Shown: one piece after another, positions 5,307 to 61,292 of the stretch
How positions within the stretch are numbered: position 1 is the stretch's first letter
Layout of the letters: every line of letters starts with the position of its first letter
Source of the DNA: a virus
IMG/VR virus record: IMGVR_UViG_3300032249_001461
Span: 1-64,000 of that record
Reading direction: 5' to 3' (one strand)
DNA: 64,000 nucleotides
Position numbers and translations under genes: made by a program
Notes under the pieces: generated by a model
The model's database searches: none
The model's input: the letters and a program-made list of their open reading frames with translations, nothing else
Told to the model about the DNA's origin: nothing

Positions 5307-6279
5307 ATGTTTTGAGTAACTTTCCAAGCATTGTTTTGGGAAATCCAAGAAGAAACGCGGCATTGTCCTGGAATCCGAAGGAAACAAGGAGAAAGTCGCC
5401 GTGTTCCGCCATTCCGCAGCAGAACTCTATCTTTGCGTCCATGAATGAGAACGAATCGGAAACCTCCACCAGTTCCCAGTCCTTGTCCCAGACCACGAAC
5501 CTGTGGGTGTAGATCGCATTCTTCTTGCCCGCTTCGGAACTGAAGAGATTGACCTCGTGAACAATGGCAAGGTAATGTCCGCCCACCGTTATCACTTGGG
5601 ATCCACCCCTGAGGTCGGAGGTGTTCAGCGGTTTCGGGTCGGACAGGAATACGGTCTTGCATGTCTTGGATGCGGGGTCGACCTCCACCACCTCGGTGGG
5701 GTTGGTCCATTTGATGTACGTGTACTCCTTGTCCAGGACGGGCATCCAGTTCTTCTCGCAGTAGCTGGAATCCGCACCGGGAGCGGGTATCCTGACCCTG
5801 CTCCTCTCCACGACCTTCTCCTTTTTGAATGACATCTCGGAGAGTTCCATCCTTCCTTGTCCGTTGGTGGTGGTGTCCCTTCTGACGCCGCTCAGGTAGA
5901 GCTTACCGCCCCACTCGACGAGCCTTCCGTCCTCAAGTCCCACAAACTCCCAGAGGGGTTCCTCGTCCAAGAAAGTTGTATCCACAATGTGGCTGGATGA
6001 TATGCTGAAGTTTTCATCTAGTCTGCAGAGTATGTTGTCGGTGATGAGCCTGAGGTCGTTCTCCTTGTGGAGGTAGCAGAGGGGCCCCCAGCTGTGCTCG
6101 AAGACGCCCTTCTCGCTGTGGTAGAGGACGTAGTTGAGGTTTCTTATGTTGAGGAGGAGTTCGCCCTTATTGCTGCGGCATATGGAGGGATTGCTCAGGG
6201 AAGGGCCCCTCATGGACGAAGGGGGGACCAGCAGGGGATGAAGGAAGCCCCCGCTATCCAGGGCGGTTTTTGCAAACAT
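5299..6279 (-). CDS. GH130-like beta-propeller glycosidase/phosphorylase
   Basis: NPSI, GLEDGRL, EKNWMP, LRGGSQ and IEFCCG motifs. Confidence 0.65.
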   Translation of the reverse strand: MFAKTALDSGGFLHPLLVPPSSMRGPSLSNPSICRSNKGELLLNIRNLNYVLYHSEKGVFEHSWGPLCYLHKENDLRLITDNILCRLDENFSISSSHIVDTTFLDEEPLWEFVGLEDGRLVEWGGKLYLSGVRRDTTTNGQGRMELSEMSFKKEKVVERSRVRIPAPGADSSYCEKNWMPVLDKEYTYIKWTNPTEVVEVDPASKTCKTVFLSDPKPLNTSDLRGGSQVITVGGHYLAIVHEVNLFSSEAGKKNAIYTHRFVVWDKDWELVEVSDSFSFMDAKIEFCCGMAEHGDFLLVSFGFQDNAAFLLGFPKTMLGKLLKTYE

Positions 6280-12743: not shown

Positions 12744-12992
12744 CTAAATCGCGAAAGATACGAATCTAGGATTTTTGGACAACTCCTGTCCGGGGATAAC
12801 CTCTTTCCAGTAGAAACCAGAAAGGTTTGGCCTCCTTCGTCGTTCCCCAGCACCGATAGGTCTGAGGTCAAGCGAAATATTTGTGGAGGCGTTGAAATCA
12901 GCGTCGGCTGTGAAGTTGCAGGCGCTGCAATCAAACTTCCTTCCCTTTCTATTTCTCTTGCGAGTCCAACCACAGCATGAGCATCTCTGGCT
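12744..12992 (-). pseudogene. tnpB: TnpB C-terminal remnant (Zn ribbon and RuvC-III)
   Basis: Hand translation SQRCSCCGWTRKRNRKGRKFDCSACNFTADADFNASTNI; no in-frame start codon. Confidence 0.8.
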
Positions 12993-13145
12993 TAGAAGAT
13001 CGAATAATACTTTTGTCGCGAAATTTCACATTGTATTTAGCGGTAAATTTTGTGTTTTTGCAAGAAAATGAATCTTAAAGCATACTATACATTTGAAACT
13101 CTACTTTTTCGGCGGCTGTCCGACGAAAAACGCGGCCCGTACGAC

Positions 13146-22289: not shown

Positions 22290-22322
22290 GCACAGGGCGG
22301 GTTTCCCCGCCCTGTGCCTTTT
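22290..22322 (+). terminator. Rho-independent terminator
   Basis: gcacagggcggg-tttc-cccgccctgtgc followed by ctttt. Confidence 0.75.
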
Positions 22323-22427
22323 ATACGCCTCCCGCCAGAAAACCCAGTACTCTTTAGGGGCCGGTATGAATGGCGGTAAAATTATATACACACACTATAT
22401 ATGGTGTCGTTCAAGAAAGGTGAAAAT

Positions 22428-22694
22428 ATGAAAAGTTTTAATGAGTGGAGAAAGTTACATGAGTCGCTTGACCCAATATCGTTTCTTCAAGATAACGAGC
22501 ATGAGTGGGTTACAGTAGGAATAGATTCAGAAGGTCACAAAATACACATATTCCCCAATTCCTTGCCAGGGGAACTTCCTCGCAGGCTTGATGGAGAAAA
22601 TTGGTCAGAAAAACACTTTGATGGTGGCGTTCAAGAAATGACCGGAAAAGAACTTTTGACCCTAAAAGACAGAGTTGAATTTGTGATGCACTAA
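22428..22694 (+). CDS. Leader-bearing hypothetical protein inside the IS boundaries
   Basis: MKSFNEWRKLHE; AAGGTG SD; TATATA upstream. Confidence 0.7.
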   Translation: MKSFNEWRKLHESLDPISFLQDNEHEWVTVGIDSEGHKIHIFPNSLPGELPRRLDGENWSEKHFDGGVQEMTGKELLTLKDRVEFVMH

Positions 22695-22697
22695 AAT

Positions 22698-23099
22698 TCA
22701 CCCTTGATTCTTAATATATTCTTGGATTGTTTTGGTGGAAGCGTCACCTGTTGAGCATACGAAATAGCCATCACTCCAGAATGTCTTCTCTTTTCAGAAG
22801 TGCTTCTTCAAATACACTTCATAGTTTTTCCAAGCATAGAAAGTTGTCTGCTGTTTCAATAGCATGACTAGTTTGGATGGTGCCAATGTGGGTGGAATGT
22901 CTACAAGCAAATGCAGATGATCTTTGTCTGATTCCATCTCGTCAATCTTCACATTGTTCTTGTTACAAACATCGTAGCACCACTGCTTGATATCATCGCT
23001 CAAGTCATTTACGAGCAGTCTTTTTCTGTACTTCACCACAAATATGATGTGCAGTTTGATAAGGAATTTGTGCCTATTTTTAGAGTGGTATTCAACCAT
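22698..23099 (-). pseudogene. tnpA: IS200/IS605 Y1 transposase with an in-frame TGA
   Basis: HIIFVVKYR and DHLHLL (HUH); after TGA at 22794-22796 the frame continues KEKTFWSDGYFVCS...QEYIKNQG. Confidence 0.9.
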
Positions 23100-23156
23100 A
23101 CATTTATGTAGTAAAATTTTTTTGAGAATTTTACATAAATCTTACTATATAAGGAT

Positions 23157-24284
23157 ATGAAGGCTACCCGGAACATCAAGTATAGGATATATGCCAAAAA
23201 TGGCAAGTTGAAAAAACTGCAACAGACGCTTGATGTATGCCGTAGCACCTATAACAAGGTGTTGGAAACACGAAAAAACAGTTGGGAAAAAGACAAGAAA
23301 AGCCTAGGAGTTTACGACTGCCATAATCTCATTAAAACTTGGAAGATAGAGGGTGTTCACTCGCAGGTTTTACAAAATGTTTCAGCCAGAGTTGATCTAG
23401 CATTCCAAGGATTCTTCCGAAGACTAAAAGAAAGCAAAGACAAGGCTGGATATCCAAGATTCAAAAGTTACGACAGATACAACTCTTTTTGTTTTCCTCA
23501 GTCTGGATTCAAACTTACTGGCAATAAACTTTACCTTTCAAAGATTGGCGAAGTAAAAGTAATCAAACATAGAGAACTAATTGGCAAAGTAAAGACTTGC
23601 ACCATCAAGCGAGAGGCGAACGATTGGTATGTGATTTTTTCCTGCGATATGGAAGTAATACCGCAGGAAAGGATTGAGACAAGGGCGGTTGGGATTGATG
23701 TGGGTTGTATAGATTTTGCAACAATGAGTGATGGCTCAACAATAAAAAACCCACACTACTTGAGGCAGTCAGAAGACGAACTCAAAAAGATTCAATCAAA
23801 ATACAGCAAATTAAAGAATCTTCCCAGAGAAGACAAGAAGAAGATTAAAACTAAAAAGCAACTTGTGAACCTTCACCTAAAGGTCAAAAATCAAAGAAAA
23901 GACTTCTTGCACAAGACAAGCAGAAGTCTGGTAAACAAATATTCAGTCATCTGCGTTGAGAAGTTAAGCGTAAAAAACATGCTCAAGGATAACTGGAGAA
24001 AACTGAACAAAAGCATACTTGATAGTGGCTGGACTAGTTTTCGCAATATGCTACATTACAAAGCGGAAGAGGCTGGTTGTGTAGTAGCGGAAGTGAAGCC
24101 AGAATACACAAGTCAGATATGCAGCGGTTGCGGAATTAAGGTTAAAAAAGAACTGGGCGAGCGAAATCACGACTGTTTTGCCTGTGGATTACAGTTAAGC
24201 CGTGACCTTAATGCTGCAAAAAACATATTAAGAGTTGGAATGAACTCTTTAGACAGCAATGTCTTAGAAGCCCACTCCCTTTAG
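23157..24284 (+). CDS. tnpB: TnpB RNA-guided nuclease
   Basis: GYPRFK, GIDVG, VEKL, TSQICSGCG and RDLNAA; RuvC D-E-D intact. Confidence 0.95.
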   Translation: MKATRNIKYRIYAKNGKLKKLQQTLDVCRSTYNKVLETRKNSWEKDKKSLGVYDCHNLIKTWKIEGVHSQVLQNVSARVDLAFQGFFRRLKESKDKAGYPRFKSYDRYNSFCFPQSGFKLTGNKLYLSKIGEVKVIKHRELIGKVKTCTIKREANDWYVIFSCDMEVIPQERIETRAVGIDVGCIDFATMSDGSTIKNPHYLRQSEDELKKIQSKYSKLKNLPREDKKKIKTKKQLVNLHLKVKNQRKDFLHKTSRSLVNKYSVICVEKLSVKNMLKDNWRKLNKSILDSGWTSFRNMLHYKAEEAGCVVAEVKPEYTSQICSGCGIKVKKELGERNHDCFACGLQLSRDLNAAKNILRVGMNSLDSNVLEAHSL

Positions 24285-24679
24285 GGGGTGGGAGCATTCA
24301 CTACTATTCCTCTGTTTGTGACGGGCCGGGGCTTTGTTCTTTTTGGATTCATGATTGGGTATCCCCATTTCCCGTTTGGCCCTATGTAGAAGGGGGATTC
24401 TGGGCCGACTCGGTGTCTCTTCCAGTCCCGGTCGAACTCCCTTTGGTTCCGGTAGAATATTGGTTCGCCTATTGTGGCGTATCCGACCAGGGTTGCGGGC
24501 CCCTTTCCCGTTCTGACTATGCCCACGCGCTTTCCTATGGTGCTGTTTAGGCTTCTTGAGTCGCGGGTCTCCATGGTCTTGATTCCGTCCAGGATGAGGT
24601 CGGTGAACGGCTGTGATCTGTCGCTGATGTTGATGCCCTTTTGGGGTTCGTTGTTTTCCAGCCAGGTTCTGAAGTCCAT
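24281..24679 (-). CDS. ASCH-domain protein with leader; last codons derive from the IS right end
   Basis: QPFTDLILDGIKTMETR (ASCH GxKxxExR); MDFRTWLE; TAAATA 4 nt upstream. Confidence 0.8.
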   Translation of the reverse strand: MDFRTWLENNEPQKGINISDRSQPFTDLILDGIKTMETRDSRSLNSTIGKRVGIVRTGKGPATLVGYATIGEPIFYRNQREFDRDWKRHRVGPESPFYIGPNGKWGYPIMNPKRTKPRPVTNRGIVVNAPTP

Positions 24680-51637: not shown

Positions 51638-52384
51638 TACTGGTTATGTATTGACTTTGGCGAGCAAAAAAGCCATATTATCTTCGGGAGGCCACAATGC
51701 CGTTTTCGTTCGGAAGCGACCCCGAGTTTATACTTTCCGATAAAAAAGGCAAGTTCAGAAGCGCCATAGGAATAGTGAAGGCGAGCAAGGAAAAAAGGCT
51801 CGGAGTGGGGGGAAACCACTTCTTCTACGACAACGTGCTCGCCGAATGCACGGTTGAACCCTCGTTTTCAAGGGATCAGGCCGTGGAAAATGCGAAAAAG
51901 TCCCTGAAAACCTACGCGGAGATAATCCGTCCTTTCAGGCTGACATGCCTGGCTTCCGCAGATTTCAACGAATCCGAAATGAAACACAAGGATGCCAGGA
52001 AGGCAGGGTGCGAGGTTGAGATGTGCGCCTACAGCCTTTCCGAGGTTCCGGCCGGCAGGATCAAGAAATTTTTCAGGAAGTCAAATTTCAGAACCGCTGG
52101 GGGGCATGTTCACCTCGGAACGGACATGGGCGGGTCGCACGAGCATTCGGTCATGCTCGTAAGGATGCTTGATCTTTTTCTTGGTGTCTCTAGCCTTCTG
52201 GTGGACAGGGACTTGCCGAGCGTGAATAGAAGGAAAGTCTACGGTCTTCCAGGAAGGTACAGACAGCCCTCGCATGGCGTCGAATACAGAACCATGGGCA
52301 ACTTCTGGCTCTCCAGCCCCATTCTCGTGGAGCTCGTATATGACATTTGCGAATATGTAATGAAGGCGATGAAAGAACGAATTT

Positions 52385-53656
52385 GTCAATTACCCACCCC
52401 CTAAAGGGAGTGGGCTTGTAAATCACCGGAGCCTTCTCCACAGTGTCTACTATAAGCCAATTGACACATGGCTCGTTCTTCAACAGCTTGCCGTTGAAGA
52501 AGCGACCGGAGTGCTACATTTTTAGCACCGACACGGTCTGCGTTGTCCGAGAACTTGCAGGCAACGCACCGAAAAACCAGTCCATTTCGGTTGGACTTAT
52601 CAACGCAACCACAACAAGGACAACCCCTGCTCGTATTTTTTGCAGGAACATTGTCAACGGTTATCCCAACAGAATTAGCCTTGTATGTGACAAAAAACTC
52701 AAGCATAAAGTAGGGCCACCTGTTATTCCTTGATCTCTGCTTGTGGTGTTGTTTTTTGTTTTCCTTGGTAAATTTCTGTTTGAAGCCGGTCAACTTTTCC
52801 AATGTTATGGTTCTTGCATTGTTCAAACTTGCAAAATTAACCAATTGCTTACTTGCAATGTGTAATATATTCTGTGTTACGGCTTTTTCTCTTCCGCTTA
52901 ACCGCTTTAGTAAACGGTGTGCTGAACGAGTGCCAACACTGGCTACTTTTGCTCTTGTTTGTCTGATGCAGAGTCTTTTGTGATTTAGTTCACCTCCCTT
53001 GATGTAAAGTGTCTTGTTTGAATTAGGGTCTATTGCAACGAGTATGTTTTTCTGTCCACGGTCAACCCCAATTATTCCGCCTTCAACTCTTGGTTCAACT
53101 TGGTCAATTTCAACTGTCAAGCACAACCACCATTGACCTTTACTGAATTTCAACTTTGAGTCACTCCATTTGCCTTTAGGAAGCGGTCGTGACTTGTAGG
53201 AAACCAGTTCGCCCCAGATGCTCATTCCCTTTTTTCTGATGTTGAAATCCCGTTTCCAGCAAAGTGGCAAACTTGTCTTGTTGTATGTCGCAAAGCTCCA
53301 ATTCTTGTTGCTTTTCATGCTTCTGTATGTTCCAACCACATGGCGGAACAAGGAGCAAGTCAATTGGCTGGGAAGATTGAATTTTTCTCTCACCATGCCG
53401 TAGAACTCTTTGCTCAATTGACCCGGAGTGTTGACTTTCTTGCGAGAATAGATTATCTTAGACAGCCAGTTTGCGGCATCCTTGTAGGATTCGGCGTATT
53501 GGCTGAACTTGGAATGCTCGCTTGTTATTTTGAGTTTGTATGTTCGTAGGGCTTTCGTCACGAACTTATATAGTAAGATTGTGACGAAAATTATTTAGGA
53601 GGTAACGGCAATTCCTCCCAGCCCCTAAAGGGACTGGGTTTCCTTGCCGAATTCAG
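52385..53656 (-). mobile_element. IS1341-type (tnpB-only) element
   Basis: Left-end hairpin 53606-53649 after TTCAT; right end ...tttagggggtgggtaatTGAC; no target duplication. Confidence 0.88.
52401..53561 (-). CDS. tnpB: TnpB RNA-guided nuclease
   Basis: GVDRG, LEKL, TSRGCPCCG and NADRVGAKN. Confidence 0.93.
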   Translation of the reverse strand: MTKALRTYKLKITSEHSKFSQYAESYKDAANWLSKIIYSRKKVNTPGQLSKEFYGMVREKFNLPSQLTCSLFRHVVGTYRSMKSNKNWSFATYNKTSLPLCWKRDFNIRKKGMSIWGELVSYKSRPLPKGKWSDSKLKFSKGQWWLCLTVEIDQVEPRVEGGIIGVDRGQKNILVAIDPNSNKTLYIKGGELNHKRLCIRQTRAKVASVGTRSAHRLLKRLSGREKAVTQNILHIASKQLVNFASLNNARTITLEKLTGFKQKFTKENKKQHHKQRSRNNRWPYFMLEFFVTYKANSVGITVDNVPAKNTSRGCPCCGCVDKSNRNGLVFRCVACKFSDNADRVGAKNVALRSLLQRQAVEERAMCQLAYSRHCGEGSGDLQAHSL

Positions 53657-53917
53657 ATGAAAATTTCTGGACCGTGGACAGGGAGAAGCTGGAATCCGAC
53701 GACTTCTGGAATGCCGGGGGCGATCCTGCCAAATGCCACCGCTGCCACGGCTATGATATCAATCTGATGAGGAGGATGTTCAATCTTGAATTCAAGGACA
53801 TTGTCTCTGAAGCAAAAGAGATAATTGACCTTGTGCTTCTGATGCTGCCGGACAAAATCAGAAGAGGGCTGTCCGATCTGGGGGGCAGGAGTTTTGATGT
53901 CTACGAAGAGTGGGGGC

Positions 53918-54385
53918 TTACCTCTTAGGGCCTCGCTTGAGCCTGACTGGGTTCAGCTTCTCCGCATGTCGGTCCTTGACGCCCTTCAGCCCGTGCATCA
54001 TGTTGACGAGTTCCTTCGCCATCTCCGCGGGCGTGTCGTTCCTGCACTTTTCGGACCTCTGTATGGATACCGTCTTCCTGTCCTTGTTGTAGAAGCCGTT
54101 TGACATTATGAAACAGCCTCCCTCCTCCTTCGGGCTGTAGCTGATCATGCCCACCCACTCCCCGTCGTCCCAGTTCCTGGAACTCACCATTATCCTTGCG
54201 GGCTCCTCGTCGAATATCTGCCGCACGTGGTATCCGCGCTTCTTGAGGCCGGCGCTGACGTAGCCGAGGGCTATCTTCGCAAAGCCCTCCAGAACCTCCT
54301 TCGTCCTGGTTCTGTAGTTGACTTCCACGCTGTACCGCGTGTTGCCCTCGTCCATCCTCTTTTCCATCCACTCCTGAAATCTCAT
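53918..54385 (-). CDS. Leader-bearing hypothetical protein
   Basis: MRFQEWME...MDE; TATATA 5 nt upstream. Confidence 0.75.
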   Translation of the reverse strand: MRFQEWMEKRMDEGNTRYSVEVNYRTRTKEVLEGFAKIALGYVSAGLKKRGYHVRQIFDEEPARIMVSSRNWDDGEWVGMISYSPKEEGGCFIMSNGFYNKDRKTVSIQRSEKCRNDTPAEMAKELVNMMHGLKGVKDRHAEKLNPVRLKRGPKR

Positions 54386-55735: not shown

Positions 55736-56449
55736 TTATGTATGATCAGGATATACGAAGTTCGGCGTCTTGGGATGAGTTCTGTGTCCCTCTGTCTTGT
55801 TTCCCTCGAGGTCTGTTCCCTTGAAATAATTCTTCTGCCAGTCTTTGTCGGTTCTGGGGCCGCTGTTGAATTTGGACCTAGATTCGCACCATTCGCCATA
55901 CTGTCGCTTCAGTTCGGGATTGCTGTCTATGCTCGTCATTTCCGCGGACAAATCATCGAAAACATCAATTCTTACCGGAAACAAATGGGCTATCACATCT
56001 CTCTGTTTTATATGGACGGTTCCGGGGGCGGTGAATTTCCAGTTCATCGTGAATGGGAAGGGCAGCCAATGGGTCTCTACAATGCCCGAAAGACATGTGA
56101 TGTTGTGTATGGGTTCGTTTGGCGAGCCGGTCACATAAAGACCATATGGAAATTCTGTTCTGAATAGGTAGCCCGTGTGCCACGTGAGAGTGCCTTCGCC
56201 GAAATGGGAAATGGGAAAGCAGGAGCCTGATACGCGGGTGACCTTTACATCATCGCGCCCTTGTCCGCCTTTCCACTCGGCCACCACTTCGCTCTTGGAT
56301 ATGAGCTCCCAGCCGTAGCTGTTGGCCATCGTGAGCGGAAGGCATCTGTATGGGTTCTTGTTTATGGACTCGTCCATCCACTTTCTGTTCGGACTCCCAG
56401 GGCGCATCTCCATCGGATCGTCCACAACTTTGTAAGCTTTTACATTCAT
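55736..56449 (-). CDS. DUF6065-like protein
   Basis: RKWMD...YRCLPLTMANSYGW, SHFGEG and WLPFPFTMNW. Confidence 0.75.
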   Translation of the reverse strand: MNVKAYKVVDDPMEMRPGSPNRKWMDESINKNPYRCLPLTMANSYGWELISKSEVVAEWKGGQGRDDVKVTRVSGSCFPISHFGEGTLTWHTGYLFRTEFPYGLYVTGSPNEPIHNITCLSGIVETHWLPFPFTMNWKFTAPGTVHIKQRDVIAHLFPVRIDVFDDLSAEMTSIDSNPELKRQYGEWCESRSKFNSGPRTDKDWQKNYFKGTDLEGNKTEGHRTHPKTPNFVYPDHT

Positions 56450-56574
56450 CTGAATCCGGCGGGAAGCCTAGTTCCTTTAGGTGCTGGGGAATTGACATTG
56501 CATCCTCAACAAGGGTGACGCAAAGCGTCTGTCTAGACTAATATATTATTGAATAAAGTCAATCCGCCAGAAAA

Positions 56575-57409: not shown

Positions 57410-59464
57410 TCAGGACAGATTTGAGGCCTTTATCACTTCGCCCTCGCCCGATCCCTTGTCCACGAAGGTGAACGATATGTCCTGCCAACCGCGGAGGACA
57501 GGTTCGCCATGCTCGTCCTTGTTTTTGATTGATGCGGACACCGATCTTCTGACTGACTCCCTGGCCTTGCTGAAGTGCTTGGAGTGCAGCCAAACCTCCA
57601 GGTCGTTAGAGTCTTCAGGCCACTTGAATATGACGAGGCCATCCTCGTAGGCCTTCTCTTCTGCGATCTCCTTCTCGTATTTCCAGACGTCGGACTCGTC
57701 GGCCTCCGGCTCGTACTTCCAGCTCTCCTCCTCCTCTTCCTTCTTGAGCCGATCCTTCTTCCAGTCCACGAAGTCGTCAAAATAGTCGTCCTTTATTTCT
57801 TTCTTGGCGTCCTCTTCGGAAGTGCCATCCCATTCGCCCTCGGAGAACCTGTCCTCGATGTACTCATCCCACTCGTAGTCTATGTCGGACTCCACCTCCT
57901 CCCTGTCCTGTCCGTAGGTTTCCGACTTCCTTTCCTCCGCGTTCGCATAGGCCTCCTCGCTCGCCTTCTCGTGGGCCGCGCCGAACACCTCCTCCTTGTC
58001 TACGATGTCATTGTCAAGGGCAAGCCGGGACACCTCCACGTCGTCACCGTCGAGATATTTCAAAGGAACGTCCTTCCATGAAGTGTCGGTTCCTACCTGC
58101 ATGTACTTGAAGGAGCCCCTGCCGATGGTATCCCTGTCCATCGCCTCCTTCTCCTCTCGCTTTTTTTCGTCTTCTTCCTCCCTGGTCTTTATCTTCTTAT
58201 GGGCGTCCTCTATCTGATCCTTGCCTCGTATGTTTATGTGTTCTGCGAGTTTCTTGAGGTACTCTATGTCTCCGGGCCTGATGGTCTCCCCGGACTCCAA
58301 CCAGGAGTTTATGGCCTCCTCGTACTCCCTCTTGAACCTCTCGTAATTCCCGCTTGCGTGCTTGGAAAGAAGGGGCGATATGGAGAACATCCTTATCGCG
58401 TTGCTCATCCAAAGCCGTGGGTTCTCCACCATGTAGGAGTACTCTTCCTCATGTATTTCCTTGTATAGTCTGATGGCGTCGTCTGCGTCCTGCGTCTTTG
58501 ACGCCTCCTCCATGACTTCATACATGTGCTGGCTGTCGCCCTTCAGAGCCTCGATGAAGAATGTGAGGAACGGACTTTCGTTGTGCTGCCAGTTGATGTA
58601 CTTTACCAGTTCGTCAAGCGGAACCTTCGTGTTTTCGGGGGTTGTGTCCTTGTCCCACGAATGCCGGAAGTACTTGTAGACCTGCTCTCTTGCCTTGGGG
58701 TGGTTTGCGAGCATCTTGTCCGCGAGGAACTTGATGTAGGAGGAAGACTTTTTTATCTTGGTCGCATCGTCGTCGTGTTCTTGTTTGCCCCTTTTGGACC
58801 ACACGGTTTCGGCTCCCCCGTAGTTCCAGCCCTTTACTATGCTGTAATGTTCTATGATGTCATTGTCTATCAGCGGTTGGGCCGCCTTCTTCATCGCGCC
58901 GACGATCTTTTCGATCTGCATCGCGGCGCTTCCGGGGTTAACCCGCATGAAATACGCCCACGATCCGCTCATCCTGCTGAAGGAGACGCCGGCGGTGGCC
59001 TTCTTCGCGTTCGCAGATGTCTTGCCCATTTCGGGTGTTGATGTGGAGGAGAACTCCTTTTCGCCCTTCATCCCCTTCATGGCGGGATGGTCGTCGTCCA
59101 CGCCGGCTGCCGACATGGCTCCCATCCATGCGCTGTCGCCTTCCTTGTAGGGCAGGGGCTTGAGTCCCGATGCGGCCAGCGATGCGGCGAGCGACTTGAT
59201 GAACGCCCTGTCCGCCCCGTTTCCGGCCTCTATGGGCGTCTTCTTTATGATCCCGACCACCGTCGCGGCGCCATCGGACAGTTTTACGTATCCAGGACGC
59301 TCCTCCGAAAACGGCCACACCTCGAAGGACGAATAGTAATCGCCGGCTCCATAGGAGAACTCCACGACGTTGTTGTTCTCCCTTGACTTTCCGAGAGACG
59401 CCTCCCCGGAGCCCGTATTAACCACTATGTTTTCATGAAGAAGGAGCCATTCCTTGAATCGCAT
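57410..59464 (-). CDS. Large leader-bearing acidic protein
   Basis: MRFKEWLLLHE; TAGATA 4 nt upstream. Confidence 0.8.
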   Translation of the reverse strand: MRFKEWLLLHENIVVNTGSGEASLGKSRENNNVVEFSYGAGDYYSSFEVWPFSEERPGYVKLSDGAATVVGIIKKTPIEAGNGADRAFIKSLAASLAASGLKPLPYKEGDSAWMGAMSAAGVDDDHPAMKGMKGEKEFSSTSTPEMGKTSANAKKATAGVSFSRMSGSWAYFMRVNPGSAAMQIEKIVGAMKKAAQPLIDNDIIEHYSIVKGWNYGGAETVWSKRGKQEHDDDATKIKKSSSYIKFLADKMLANHPKAREQVYKYFRHSWDKDTTPENTKVPLDELVKYINWQHNESPFLTFFIEALKGDSQHMYEVMEEASKTQDADDAIRLYKEIHEEEYSYMVENPRLWMSNAIRMFSISPLLSKHASGNYERFKREYEEAINSWLESGETIRPGDIEYLKKLAEHINIRGKDQIEDAHKKIKTREEEDEKKREEKEAMDRDTIGRGSFKYMQVGTDTSWKDVPLKYLDGDDVEVSRLALDNDIVDKEEVFGAAHEKASEEAYANAEERKSETYGQDREEVESDIDYEWDEYIEDRFSEGEWDGTSEEDAKKEIKDDYFDDFVDWKKDRLKKEEEEESWKYEPEADESDVWKYEKEIAEEKAYEDGLVIFKWPEDSNDLEVWLHSKHFSKARESVRRSVSASIKNKDEHGEPVLRGWQDISFTFVDKGSGEGEVIKASNLS

Positions 59465-59571
59465 GCCCTATCTATCCACGGCGGCGGGAGAACTCTATCT
59501 GAAAGAGAAAAGTTTGGTCACAAAGGGCGAGCGATAGATGAACTGCGACCAAAACCTGACGAAAAACAAAT

Positions 59572-59688
59572 GCTTCCCCCGCGGGGGCTGTGGCGGAATG
59601 AGCCATGTGTCAATGTGCTCATGGTAGACGCTGCGGAGGCCGCTCCGGTGATTTGCAAGCCCAATCCCTTCGGAGGGCGGTAATTGAC
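59572..59688 (+). ncRNA. Orphan omega-RNA-like copy of the right end of IS 52385-53656
   Basis: gagccatgtgtcaat...gtagac...gctccggtgattt.caagccc...gtaattgac aligns to the reverse complement of about 52385-52503. Confidence 0.7.
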
Positions 59689-59690
59689 TG

Positions 59691-61292
59691 CTAAACGACT
59701 CCAAGGATGGACGAACCATTGACGCCGCGTTGAATCGGGTACTGAGTGCGAGAGCCCAGGGTCACCGTGCCGGTATACGTTGCCGCAGGAAACGAGAACG
59801 AACTGTCGTTGAACGTGGCATCGCCATTTACGGGGCCGGCGTTCGATGCGTTGTCGTTAAACGTGGCCATGCCAGAGACGCTTCCTCCGTCGTTGGACGA
59901 ACTGTCGTTGAACGTCCAGTTTTGCCCTGGCGTGGCGAAAATCCAGTTCGTTGCGTCTTGGCTCCACGTTTCGTTGCCGTTAAGCACAAACGAAACCGGC
60001 GTCCCTGAAGAGAAAGTCACGGAGCCAGAGACATCTCCTAGTGGCACGCTCGCGCCATAAGCACTTTCCGTCACAGTAATGTTTCCAACGCTACCCGTGT
60101 TGCTCCAGAGAATGCCGACAAACGTGGCGTCGGCAACATTGCCCGCGTTGACTGAACTGTCGTAAAAGGTGGCCGCGATGTATCCCGGCCCAAGTTGGCT
60201 GCTGACCGAGCCATAATTGATTGCATTTCCACTGAAGGCCGCACCGAAGGCAGTCACCACGCTATTCATGTTGCTGGCGTCTCCAGAAAAGCTGCAGTTA
60301 TTGGAGTACACCGAGCCAGCGTTAATCGCGTTTCCGCCAAAAGAAAAGTCGCCGGCGCCAGCACCCGCGCTGCCGTTGTTGACTGCGTTATCGGCAAACG
60401 CCCCGGAGATAGCAAGCGTGCCGGTGACACTGTTGACTGTGTTGTTACTGAAGCCCGCTTCTGACGCGCTTCCGCTGTTGACCGCGCTATCATTGAACTG
60501 TGCGTAATATGAGATGGTGCCGATGTTGGACGAAGAGTCATTGAACTGCGACCCACCATATGCAGCGGTGTTGACCCCTCCACTGTTGGACGAAGAGTCA
60601 TTGAACGTGCCGCTGTGGCCCACCGACCCACCGTTGGTTGCAGTGTCGTTGAATGTCGCGTTGTTACTCACCGTTCCACCGTTGGACGAACTGTCGTTAA
60701 ATGTCGCGTCGCCACCCACCGTTCCGCCGTTGGACGAACTGTCGTTGAACTCTGCATTGCCAACCACCGACCCACCGTTGCTTGAACTGTCGTTGTATGT
60801 CGCCTCCCCAGTGACGCTAGTGTCTCTGCTTGCAGAAGCGTCGTTGTGCGTGGCGTTGAGAGTGACGGTGCCATAATTTACTGCGTTGTCGTTGAATGTC
60901 GCGTTGGTAGCGGTGGCGAAGCTCGCGTTAAACGCATCGCCACCAAACGTCGCATGGCCTGCGACCGTGCCCGCGTTGTAGCCGCCCCCGCCAAACGTCG
61001 CGTTGCCGGTGATCGTTCCGCCGTTTCCCGCTGCTCCGTTAAACGTCGCGAGCCCGTTTTCCGCAAGGGTAATTGCAATTCCCAGAGTTTGACCGCCGAT
61101 GTCATCCAACAATGTGAAATTAGCCACCGTTGGCTCGCTGCCACCGTTGGACGTTACGCTCGCGCTTGCGATCACGTTGTCGGCACTAGACGGCAGGGCT
61201 GCGGCGGGCGTGGTGAACGCGGCATCTCCCCACCAGTTTCCCAGTTCCGTCCATTCACCATCGACCGCGCCATTGAAGTAGAGCGTTGCCAT
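59691..61292 (-). CDS. Beta-helix repeat adhesin or fibre
   Basis: Many ATFNDSSSNGGxV repeats; AGGAG SD. Confidence 0.8.
   Translation of the reverse strand: MATLYFNGAVDGEWTELGNWWGDAAFTTPAAALPSSADNVIASASVTSNGGSEPTVANFTLLDDIGGQTLGIAITLAENGLATFNGAAGNGGTITGNATFGGGGYNAGTVAGHATFGGDAFNASFATATNATFNDNAVNYGTVTLNATHNDASASRDTSVTGEATYNDSSSNGGSVVGNAEFNDSSSNGGTVGGDATFNDSSSNGGTVSNNATFNDTATNGGSVGHSGTFNDSSSNSGGVNTAAYGGSQFNDSSSNIGTISYYAQFNDSAVNSGSASEAGFSNNTVNSVTGTLAISGAFADNAVNNGSAGAGAGDFSFGGNAINAGSVYSNNCSFSGDASNMNSVVTAFGAAFSGNAINYGSVSSQLGPGYIAATFYDSSVNAGNVADATFVGILWSNTGSVGNITVTESAYGASVPLGDVSGSVTFSSGTPVSFVLNGNETWSQDATNWIFATPGQNWTFNDSSSNDGGSVSGMATFNDNASNAGPVNGDATFNDSSFSFPAATYTGTVTLGSRTQYPIQRGVNGSSILGVV

Follow-up and report, generated by a model that had tools for sequence, protein, structure and literature searches.

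A probable remnant of a PATE-like omegaRNA mini-element behind a putative tail fibre gene of a very large phage

The omegaRNA scaffold of TnpB overlaps the 3' end of the tnpB gene and stops at the right end of the element, and the flank serves as the guide (Karvelis et al. 2021, PMC8612924). The ISDra2 omegaRNA (PMC8612924) is a ~120-nt multi-stem scaffold with a putative pseudoknot, and its TAM is located 5' of the left end. PATEs frequently code for omegaRNAs that require TnpB in trans (Meers et al. 2023, bioRxiv 10.1101/2023.03.14.532601 / PMC10055086). The PATE of Geobacillus stearothermophilus (PMC10055086) contains no protein gene. Its ends are of the IS200/IS605 type with subterminal hairpins, its 5-nt TAM is fixed and its omegaRNA scaffold stops at the right end, the flank being the guide; TnpA and TnpB are used in trans. 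OmegaRNA-bearing PATE-like elements are an already known kind. The guide RNA of the domesticated TnpB called TldR (Wiegand et al., bioRxiv 10.1101/2023.11.30.569447) is unlinked from transposition, and its target is fixed and lies near a surface-structure gene of a phage or host; TldR loci reportedly keep a nuclease-dead TnpB gene beside a guide that is conserved among relatives and targets promoters. Solo or truncated IS ends are one-ended and immobile, drift to the host base composition and are private to one genome.

The DNA stretch analysed here, called the window, covers the initial 64 kb of an IMG/VR virus record of 99.9 kb. CheckV estimates the completeness of the record at ~20%; therefore, it is a fragment of a very large phage genome. 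The window contains an orphan copy of an omegaRNA scaffold. The parent family of this scaffold shares with the ISDra2 omegaRNA the length, the multi-stem form, the putative pseudoknot and the TAM 5' of the left end, and it shares all the listed features with the PATE. In contrast to the PATE, the family occurs in very large lake phages and keeps the tnpB promoter box and a structured 5' module of ~90 nt. The window copy is incomplete and, unlike the PATE, has no left end, TAM or promoter; the 5' module is also gone. It differs from the ISDra2 omegaRNA in having no adjacent tnpB and a mutated invariant core, and the family TAM is TTCAT. Like the TldR guides, the orphan is unlinked from transposition and lies at a fixed site near a putative surface-structure gene; however, neither a nuclease-dead TnpB gene beside it nor a conserved, promoter-targeting guide is seen at the orphan. 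It resembles solo IS ends in all four properties, but its kept end holds a whole non-coding RNA gene.

The orphan scaffold and the intact element IS-B

The intact tnpB-only IS200/IS605-type element IS-B occupies positions 52,385–53,656 on the minus strand. It encodes a TnpB of 386 aa (52,401–53,561, minus strand) with a PF07282 match, and its RuvC-like motifs GVDRG, LEKLTG and NADRVGAKN can be aligned with Cas12f/TnpB structures. Thus, the intact TnpB ~6 kb from the orphan, claimed in the earlier note, is indeed present; judged by these motifs, it is plausibly catalytically intact and putatively active. The cognate omegaRNA scaffold (52,385–52,504, minus strand) scores 145.9 bits with our covariance model, and nhmmer places the left end at 53,573–53,656 on the minus strand. 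The TAM TTCAT is read on the minus strand at 53,657–53,661. A copy of IS-B with 99% identity is present in a 458-kb phage contig.

The orphan scaffold (59,571–59,688, plus strand) aligns over the full scaffold length with the reverse complement of 52,385–52,504. BLAST inside the 99.9-kb record found two copies only, 59,587–59,688 (plus) matching 52,385–52,487 (minus) with 81% identity over 102 nt (E 1.2e-21). A 22-nt core occurs in this comparison only at the orphan and in IS-B, with 0.01 sites expected by chance. With a covariance model built without the orphan, 59,571–59,688 scored 77.0 bits (E 2.5e-19) over model positions 1–120 of 120, compared with 145.9 bits for IS-B and 110–146 bits for intact copies. 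BLAST and the covariance model therefore confirm the proposed match of ~117 nt to the 3' end of the IS. It includes the terminal GTAATTGAC at 59,680–59,688, which ends in the right-end terminus AATTGAC (59,682–59,688, plus strand), the transposon boundary; this terminus is invariant across the family and is followed by variable sequence. The orphan contains no tnpB, as had been reported; the sole similarity is a pseudo-translation of 45 residues with 3 stops. It also contains no tnpA or other protein gene, and the two overlapping ORFs of 74 and 82 aa have no Pfam match.

According to the ORF list, all genes near the orphan are on the minus strand. The neighbouring repeat-rich ORF of 533 aa (59,691–61,292, minus strand) is a putative tail fibre, and its 3' end is the presumed former target site. 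The Pfam search of this ORF gave no match, and its relatives are phage proteins. Fibre homologs in two viral contigs are only 40% identical, and a protein search with the C-terminal region reached 67% identity at best. The 20 nt after the terminus (59,689–59,708, plus strand) would be the guide. They had been described as antisense to the 3' end of a beta-helix fibre gene. The overlap with the end of the ORF holds, since the flank TGCTAAACGACTCCAAGGAT covers the stop codon (59,691–59,693) and the final codons, whereas the beta-helix label finds no Pfam match behind it. We consider that the would-be guide is simply the flank of an old insertion site.

The scaffold family and its tnpB-less mini-elements

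To define the family, an 18-nt core was searched against viral and metagenome collections. After 12 chance matches were dropped, ~30 related loci were left, among them ~16 tnpB elements, full or partial, and 12 copies that lack tnpB. The family core was absent from 185,579 species genomes scanned for host or bacterial copies. Twenty distinct scaffold sequences were aligned over 120 columns; the TnpBs of the corresponding elements are 73–100% identical to that of IS-B. RNAalifold on these 20 scaffolds gave four stems with 35 pairs, and double compensatory changes were found at 11 of the 35. Since 11 pairs are doubly compensated across 20 sequences, the four-stem structure predicted from the alignment is real. 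In a diverged subfamily, stems 3 and 4 have a wholly different sequence, and the hairpins still form. The stem 2 loop GUCAAUU is complementary to the 3'-terminal AAUUGAC, and both are invariant in the family; because of this complementarity and invariance, they likely form a pseudoknot. No Rfam family matched anywhere in the window at the gathering threshold, and therefore the scaffold is outside the curated families.

It turned out that TTCAT stands at 12/12 distinct left-end junctions of the family, which bears out the suggestion that it is the TAM. TTCAT was also found at the mini-element of the locus L004 and at a one-hairpin mini-element of 47 nt in the window (56,445–56,496 with the motif). 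The latter belongs to the same family (56,450–56,496, plus strand, nhmmer E 1.2e-7), and its TTCAT lies upstream at 56,445–56,449. The TAM of ISDra2 is TTGAT. Elements of the family are often located directly before start codons, for example, the mini-element in the window and L011.

The 12 tnpB-less copies come from metagenome loci in which the 1.5 kb upstream of the scaffold has no homology to TnpB. Six of them are complete, originate from lake metagenomes and share a common architecture of ~295 nt. Its order is TTCAT, a left end with a hairpin, a TATATT box, the 5' module, the leader, the scaffold, AATTGAC and the flank. The TATATT box has the same position as the TATATA box of tnpB. The 5' module is ~90 nt long, and its long-range closing stem covaries: it is mostly CAAGGTTG/CAACCTTG, and in L030 and L049 it is GAGGTTG/CAACCTC. 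The A-rich leader is GACGAAAACAAAACAACG. Stem 1 is C-rich (CCCCCACGG/CCGTGGGGG) and differs in both arms from the coding version TTCTTCAACGG/CTGTTGAAGAA. The sequence 3' of AATTGAC is different in each tnpB-less copy. Thus, the ~295-nt family consists of mobile guide-RNA-only mini-transposons. Complete mini-elements depend on TnpA and TnpB supplied in trans.

Origin and truncation of the orphan

We determined which branch of the family the orphan belongs to. The orphan carries the leader GACGAAAAACAAATG and stem 1 of the form CCCCCGCGG/CTGTGGCGG. Positions 59,551–59,570 (plus strand) are the tail of the A-rich leader that is specific to the tnpB-less family (AACCTGACGAAAAACAAA); they mark the 5' limit of detectable homology, that is, the truncation point. 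In the MAFFT alignment, the AACCT-GACGAAAAAC of the orphan matches AACCTTGACGAAAAC of the family, while the full IS has unrelated coding sequence at the leader position. A profile of the six complete mini-elements used with nhmmer aligned the orphan from 59,558, with the envelope from 59,538 (E 2.7e-29). The identity of the orphan is 78–82% to tnpB-less copies and 76–78% to the full IS. The homology had been thought to begin where the scaffold begins. This is true in comparison with IS-B, but against the tnpB-less family the match extends ~13–20 nt further 5' (to 59,551 or 59,558). Because of the leader tail and the C-rich stem 1, we assign the orphan to the tnpB-less family. Judged by these features, it is a derivative of that family and not a decayed copy of IS-B.

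The orphan retains only the last ~131–138 nt of the mini-element. The profile that contains the left end revealed no left end near the orphan, as expected from the earlier note; left ends in the window were found only at 53,573–53,667 (IS-B), at 56,431–56,504 (the 47-nt mini-element) and at 22,314–22,401, the last being that of a second IS, a carrier of tnpA and tnpB, located by the profile search. The left end, the TTCAT adjacent to it, the promoter box and the 5' module are all missing. The 93 nt at 59,465–59,557 resemble the 5' module of the family no better than shuffled sequences do (P 0.45–0.95). The first MAFFT alignment had suggested a relic that spans the entire 226-nt spacer and includes a look-alike of the promoter box; this was refuted by local alignment against shuffles, and nhmmer gave no match. 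The remaining intergenic spacer (59,465–59,550) is unrelated to the mini-element: its similarity to the family leader is at the shuffle level, and it has no stable fold (z +0.79). A TAGATA box read from the sequence at 59,469–59,474 (minus strand) stands 4 nt ahead of the start of the gene 57,410–59,464. Mobilisation by Y1 transposases of the IS200/IS605 type requires the left end. Since the left end is missing, the orphan cannot be excised or copied by TnpA and is immobile. Other truncated copies of the family exist (L045, L017, L016 and L004). In L045, 173 nt of the right end are left, with 98.8% identity to a full copy, and in L004 a 19-nt stub of the left end is fused to the scaffold.

The locus probably arose as follows. 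A mini-element would have landed in antisense orientation immediately after the fibre-like gene, next to its stop codon. The target was probably the TTCAT that an ATGAA start codon presents on the opposite strand, and the element would then have come to lie between the fibre stop and that start. A later deletion or recombination may have removed the left end, the TAM, the promoter and the 5' module, together with the adjoining gene start. The remnant would have drifted afterwards with a bias from AT to GC. We estimate the probability at roughly 0.72 that the orphan is such a 3'-terminal remnant of a PATE-like tnpB-less omegaRNA mini-element of the IS200/IS605 type, a truncated and drifting fossil. 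The idea of a decayed insertion in the earlier note is thus retained in that the orphan is a truncated and mutated relic; its ancestor, in contrast, was a tnpB-less omegaRNA mini-element rather than a full IS from which tnpB was deleted in situ.

Decay of the scaffold and alternative readings

We also assessed how far the scaffold has decayed. Stem 1, in its C-rich form (59,571–59,600, plus strand), has one broken pair (C-C), four wobble pairs and a loop shorter by 1 nt; in the family, 6 pairs of this stem covary. In stem 2 with its loop (59,601–59,619, plus strand), two of the five stem pairs are broken (T46G and G47T), and one pseudoknot pair is lost, since the loop is GUCAAUG instead of the family GUCAAUU. 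Stem 3 (59,624–59,656, plus strand) retains every modelled pair, two of which are now G-U. Stem 4, the subterminal hairpin of the right end (59,659–59,681, plus strand), has lost 1 nt and carries a C-to-A change, both of which weaken it. Substitutions that break the stems, named in advance as a sign against function, are therefore present in stems 1 and 2 (one pair and two of five) and not in stem 3. In total, 31/35 modelled pairs are canonical, 6/7 putative pseudoknot pairs are kept and the 3' terminus is exact. The single-sequence fold of the orphan has z -1.6, compared with z -5.0 for the IS-B scaffold.

Compared with the nearest family sequence, the orphan differs by 21 substitutions and 2 one-base deletions, and 12 of the substitutions are from AT to GC. 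Its GC content is 0.62, compared with 0.50 in the cognate scaffold, 0.40–0.46 in the IS body and ~0.55 in the phage. This pattern is compatible with a long residence. Seventeen states of the orphan are private, i.e. absent in 20 relatives, and 12 of these affect the 66 columns in which all 20 agree; invariant columns were not spared (Fisher P 0.20, with the opposite trend). The core block of columns 29–58 (stem 2, loop and linker) is invariant in 20/20 other sequences, even across TnpB lineages that are only 74% identical, and the orphan has five substitutions in it. Paired columns were not spared either: there are 10 changes in 70 paired columns and 11 in 50 unpaired columns (P 0.38). By hand count, 7 of the 10 changes in paired columns are "compatible" transitions that form wobble pairs. 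A covariance check for compensatory changes had been proposed, and its outcome was negative: at least 32/35 pairs, the number kept by the orphan in this test, are retained in 18% of random placements that preserve the mutation spectrum, so that the orphan's own changes are no better than this null (P 0.18), a test in which a present-day family member stands in for the ancestor and the orphan is represented by one copy from one source sample. The compensation in stem 1 relative to IS-B, at first sight a sign of function, was rejected as such, as these changes were inherited from the tnpB-less family and the orphan's own changes do not exceed the null. No sister copies with the orphan variants were found among 241 million metagenome records and 2.9 million viral contigs. 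The substitution pattern is compatible with neutrality, and the scaffold looks decayed. Most likely, the orphan is non-functional and is now just an intergenic spacer.

Three other readings of the locus were weighed. The orphan could have arisen by in-place decay of a full tnpB-containing sister of IS-B, in which a single deletion removed tnpB and the left end; the orphan is 81% identical to the right end of IS-B, and truncated ends of full ISs do exist, e.g. L045 with its 173 retained nt. This origin is very improbable, because the 13–20 nt 5' of the scaffold match the tnpB-less leader and not tnpB coding sequence, stem 1 is the C-rich non-coding variant and the orphan is closer to the tnpB-less copies. 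It is also unlikely that the relic, read on the minus strand, has been exapted to form the terminator or 3' UTR of the fibre gene and the spacer ahead of the promoter box that precedes the gene 57,410–59,464. The relic does begin 2 nt past the fibre stop codon, the minus strand has a palindrome CCCCCGCGGGGG followed by AAGCAUUUGUUUUUCG, and in intact family members stem 1 together with the A-rich leader gives, as reverse complement, a hairpin followed by a U-tract. However, a terminator scan of both strands gave no match, the minus-strand fold is no better than shuffles (z +1.0) and where the sense strand has G-U pairs, the minus strand has C-A mismatches. The relic is also missing from related fibre alleles, their next ORF following 2–3 nt after the stop.

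The earlier note had proposed, besides decay, a trans-acting guide directed against competing fibre alleles. The orphan transcript of the plus strand would act as a stand-alone omegaRNA in the TnpB of IS-B and cut the insertion-free fibre alleles of co-infecting phages, or drive gene or module conversion. The use of PATE omegaRNAs in trans has been proposed (Meers et al. 2023, PMC10055086), a cognate TnpB with RuvC-like motifs is encoded in the same genome 6 kb away and the scaffold is entire, with 31/35 pairs and an exact 3' end. Its would-be target also exists. Near relatives of the fibre 3' end were found only in Logan contigs, from three freshwater studies, with ~94% identity in the 3' module (59,689–60,191), and contigs of three runs (X2, X4 and X5) match the guide at 20/20 positions; the 20-nt target TGCTAAACG... 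is kept unchanged, i.e. 100% conserved in the fibre alleles of other phages. The predicted TAM, in contrast, was absent in all three studies. The homology of the rival alleles ends exactly at 59,689, the preceding letters are ...GGCAAGGATCA (30 nt of flank visible) and GATCA stands before the target, matching TTCAT at 0/5 positions. On the minus strand, this junction reads TAG-C-ATG..., and in related alleles the next ORF lies 2–3 nt past the stop; a different next ORF may start there. Therefore, the break at 59,689 is a sign of gene mosaicism no less than of an insertion boundary. Elsewhere in the 99.9-kb record, the guide has only chance matches with 3 mismatches, and the 29-nt flank is absent from viral contigs. 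Moreover, the family promoter box is deleted, a simple scan revealed no sigma70-like promoter upstream of the orphan and no TA(N)ATA box was seen there by eye on the plus strand. None of the sequencing runs listed as containing the stretch is an RNA run, which counts neither for nor against expression. The five changes in the invariant core block hit two stem 2 pairs and one pseudoknot pair, structural constraint leaves no statistical sign and the orphan variants have no sister copies in the collections scanned. With the promoter box lost, invariant positions hit and GATCA in place of TTCAT, the proposal of a trans-acting guide found no support, and we regard it as quite unlikely.

Meaning for the phage and the mini-element family

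On its own, the orphan is of little weight: it is another relic that selfish DNA has left in a phage genome. It calls for caution in annotation, as a complete-looking scaffold and apparent compensation can be explained by neutral GC-biased drift under the right null. If the orphan were a trans guide after all, a very large phage would possess an RNA-guided cut site, fixed to where a common tail-fibre module has its 3' end. Such a locus would be a natural intermediate between a transposon guide and a fixed phage-encoded RNA-guided weapon, an early step of CRISPR-like domestication. The family behind the remnant is a well-defined group of promoter-bearing guide-RNA-only mini-transposons with the TAM TTCAT, and in some lake metagenomes it outnumbers its tnpB-bearing relatives. 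Its insertion sites coincide with gene boundaries (antisense ATGAA starts). Thus, these elements may shape the mosaicism around fibre genes.

Predicted pseudoknot in the omegaRNA scaffold

Using an alignment of 20 distinct omegaRNA scaffold sequences, we found that the stem-2 loop GUCAAUU (columns 40-46) is fully complementary to the 3'-terminal AAUUGAC (columns 114-120), and that loop and terminus are both invariant (20/20 sequences). In IS-B, the tnpB-only element at 52385-53656, these arms lie on the minus strand at window positions 52385-52391 and 52459-52465. Judging from the sequences, the stem-2 loop and the 3' terminus likely form a pseudoknot adjoining the guide.

Elements lacking tnpB

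The ~295-nt tnpB-less family (metagenome loci L011, L015, L034, L048, L054 and L030) retains a TATATT box together with a 5' module of ~90 nt, whose ends are joined by a long-range stem that covaries. Part of this module runs colinear with two short segments of the tnpB coding region, at about 52871-52939 of the window, and it therefore arose by internal deletions. In the lake metagenome Ga0214917, tnpB-less versus full tnpB copies stood at about 8 to 2. The locus L004, at 5575-5720 (minus strand) of a 73-kb viral contig, is an independent deletion derivative: TTCAT is followed by a 19-nt left-end stub and then by a scaffold whose stem 1 has lost its 5' arm. The sole TnpB of that contig is 28% identical to the IS-B TnpB and has its own, different scaffold. 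The window also carries a one-hairpin mini-element of the IS-B family, 47 nt long (56445-56496 including TTCAT, plus strand), which reads TTCAT and then CTGAATCCGG...GGAATTGAC and matches the family profile with an E value of 1.2e-7.

Insertion site of IS-B and probable exchange in the fibre-like gene

IS-B splits a COOH-NH2 ligase-type gene into parts at 51697-52384 and 53657-53928 (plus strand), the first of which matches PF14395. By reading of the sequence, both parts share one frame once 52385-53656 is removed, and the TAM of IS-B is ATGAA at 53657-53661. At its 3' end, the fibre-like gene carries a module of ~500 nt (59689-60191) that is shared, at ~94% identity, with contigs of three other freshwater studies, and this homology stops sharply at both ends. 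These two-sided limits indicate that the C-terminal part of the fibre undergoes mosaic exchange.

Other TnpB- and TnpA-related sequences

Within a 118-aa ORF, a short stretch at 12870-12995 (minus strand) shows 43% identity to the zinc-ribbon region of TnpB (residues 310-351). This stretch may represent either a fragment of TnpB or a zinc ribbon of unrelated origin.

The second IS (about 22314-24301) contains tnpA, encoding a Y1 transposase (PF01797), at 22695-23099 on the minus strand. An in-frame TGA at 22794-22796 ends its reading frame, at the position of a conserved Trp in IS200-type TnpA. With the stop in place, the PF01797 match covers positions 3-90 of 121 and scores 80 bits; when the TGA was taken as Trp, the match covered 3-121 and scored 123.5 bits. 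The gene is either a nonsense pseudogene or subject to recoding; if it is a pseudogene, the window has no intact TnpA.
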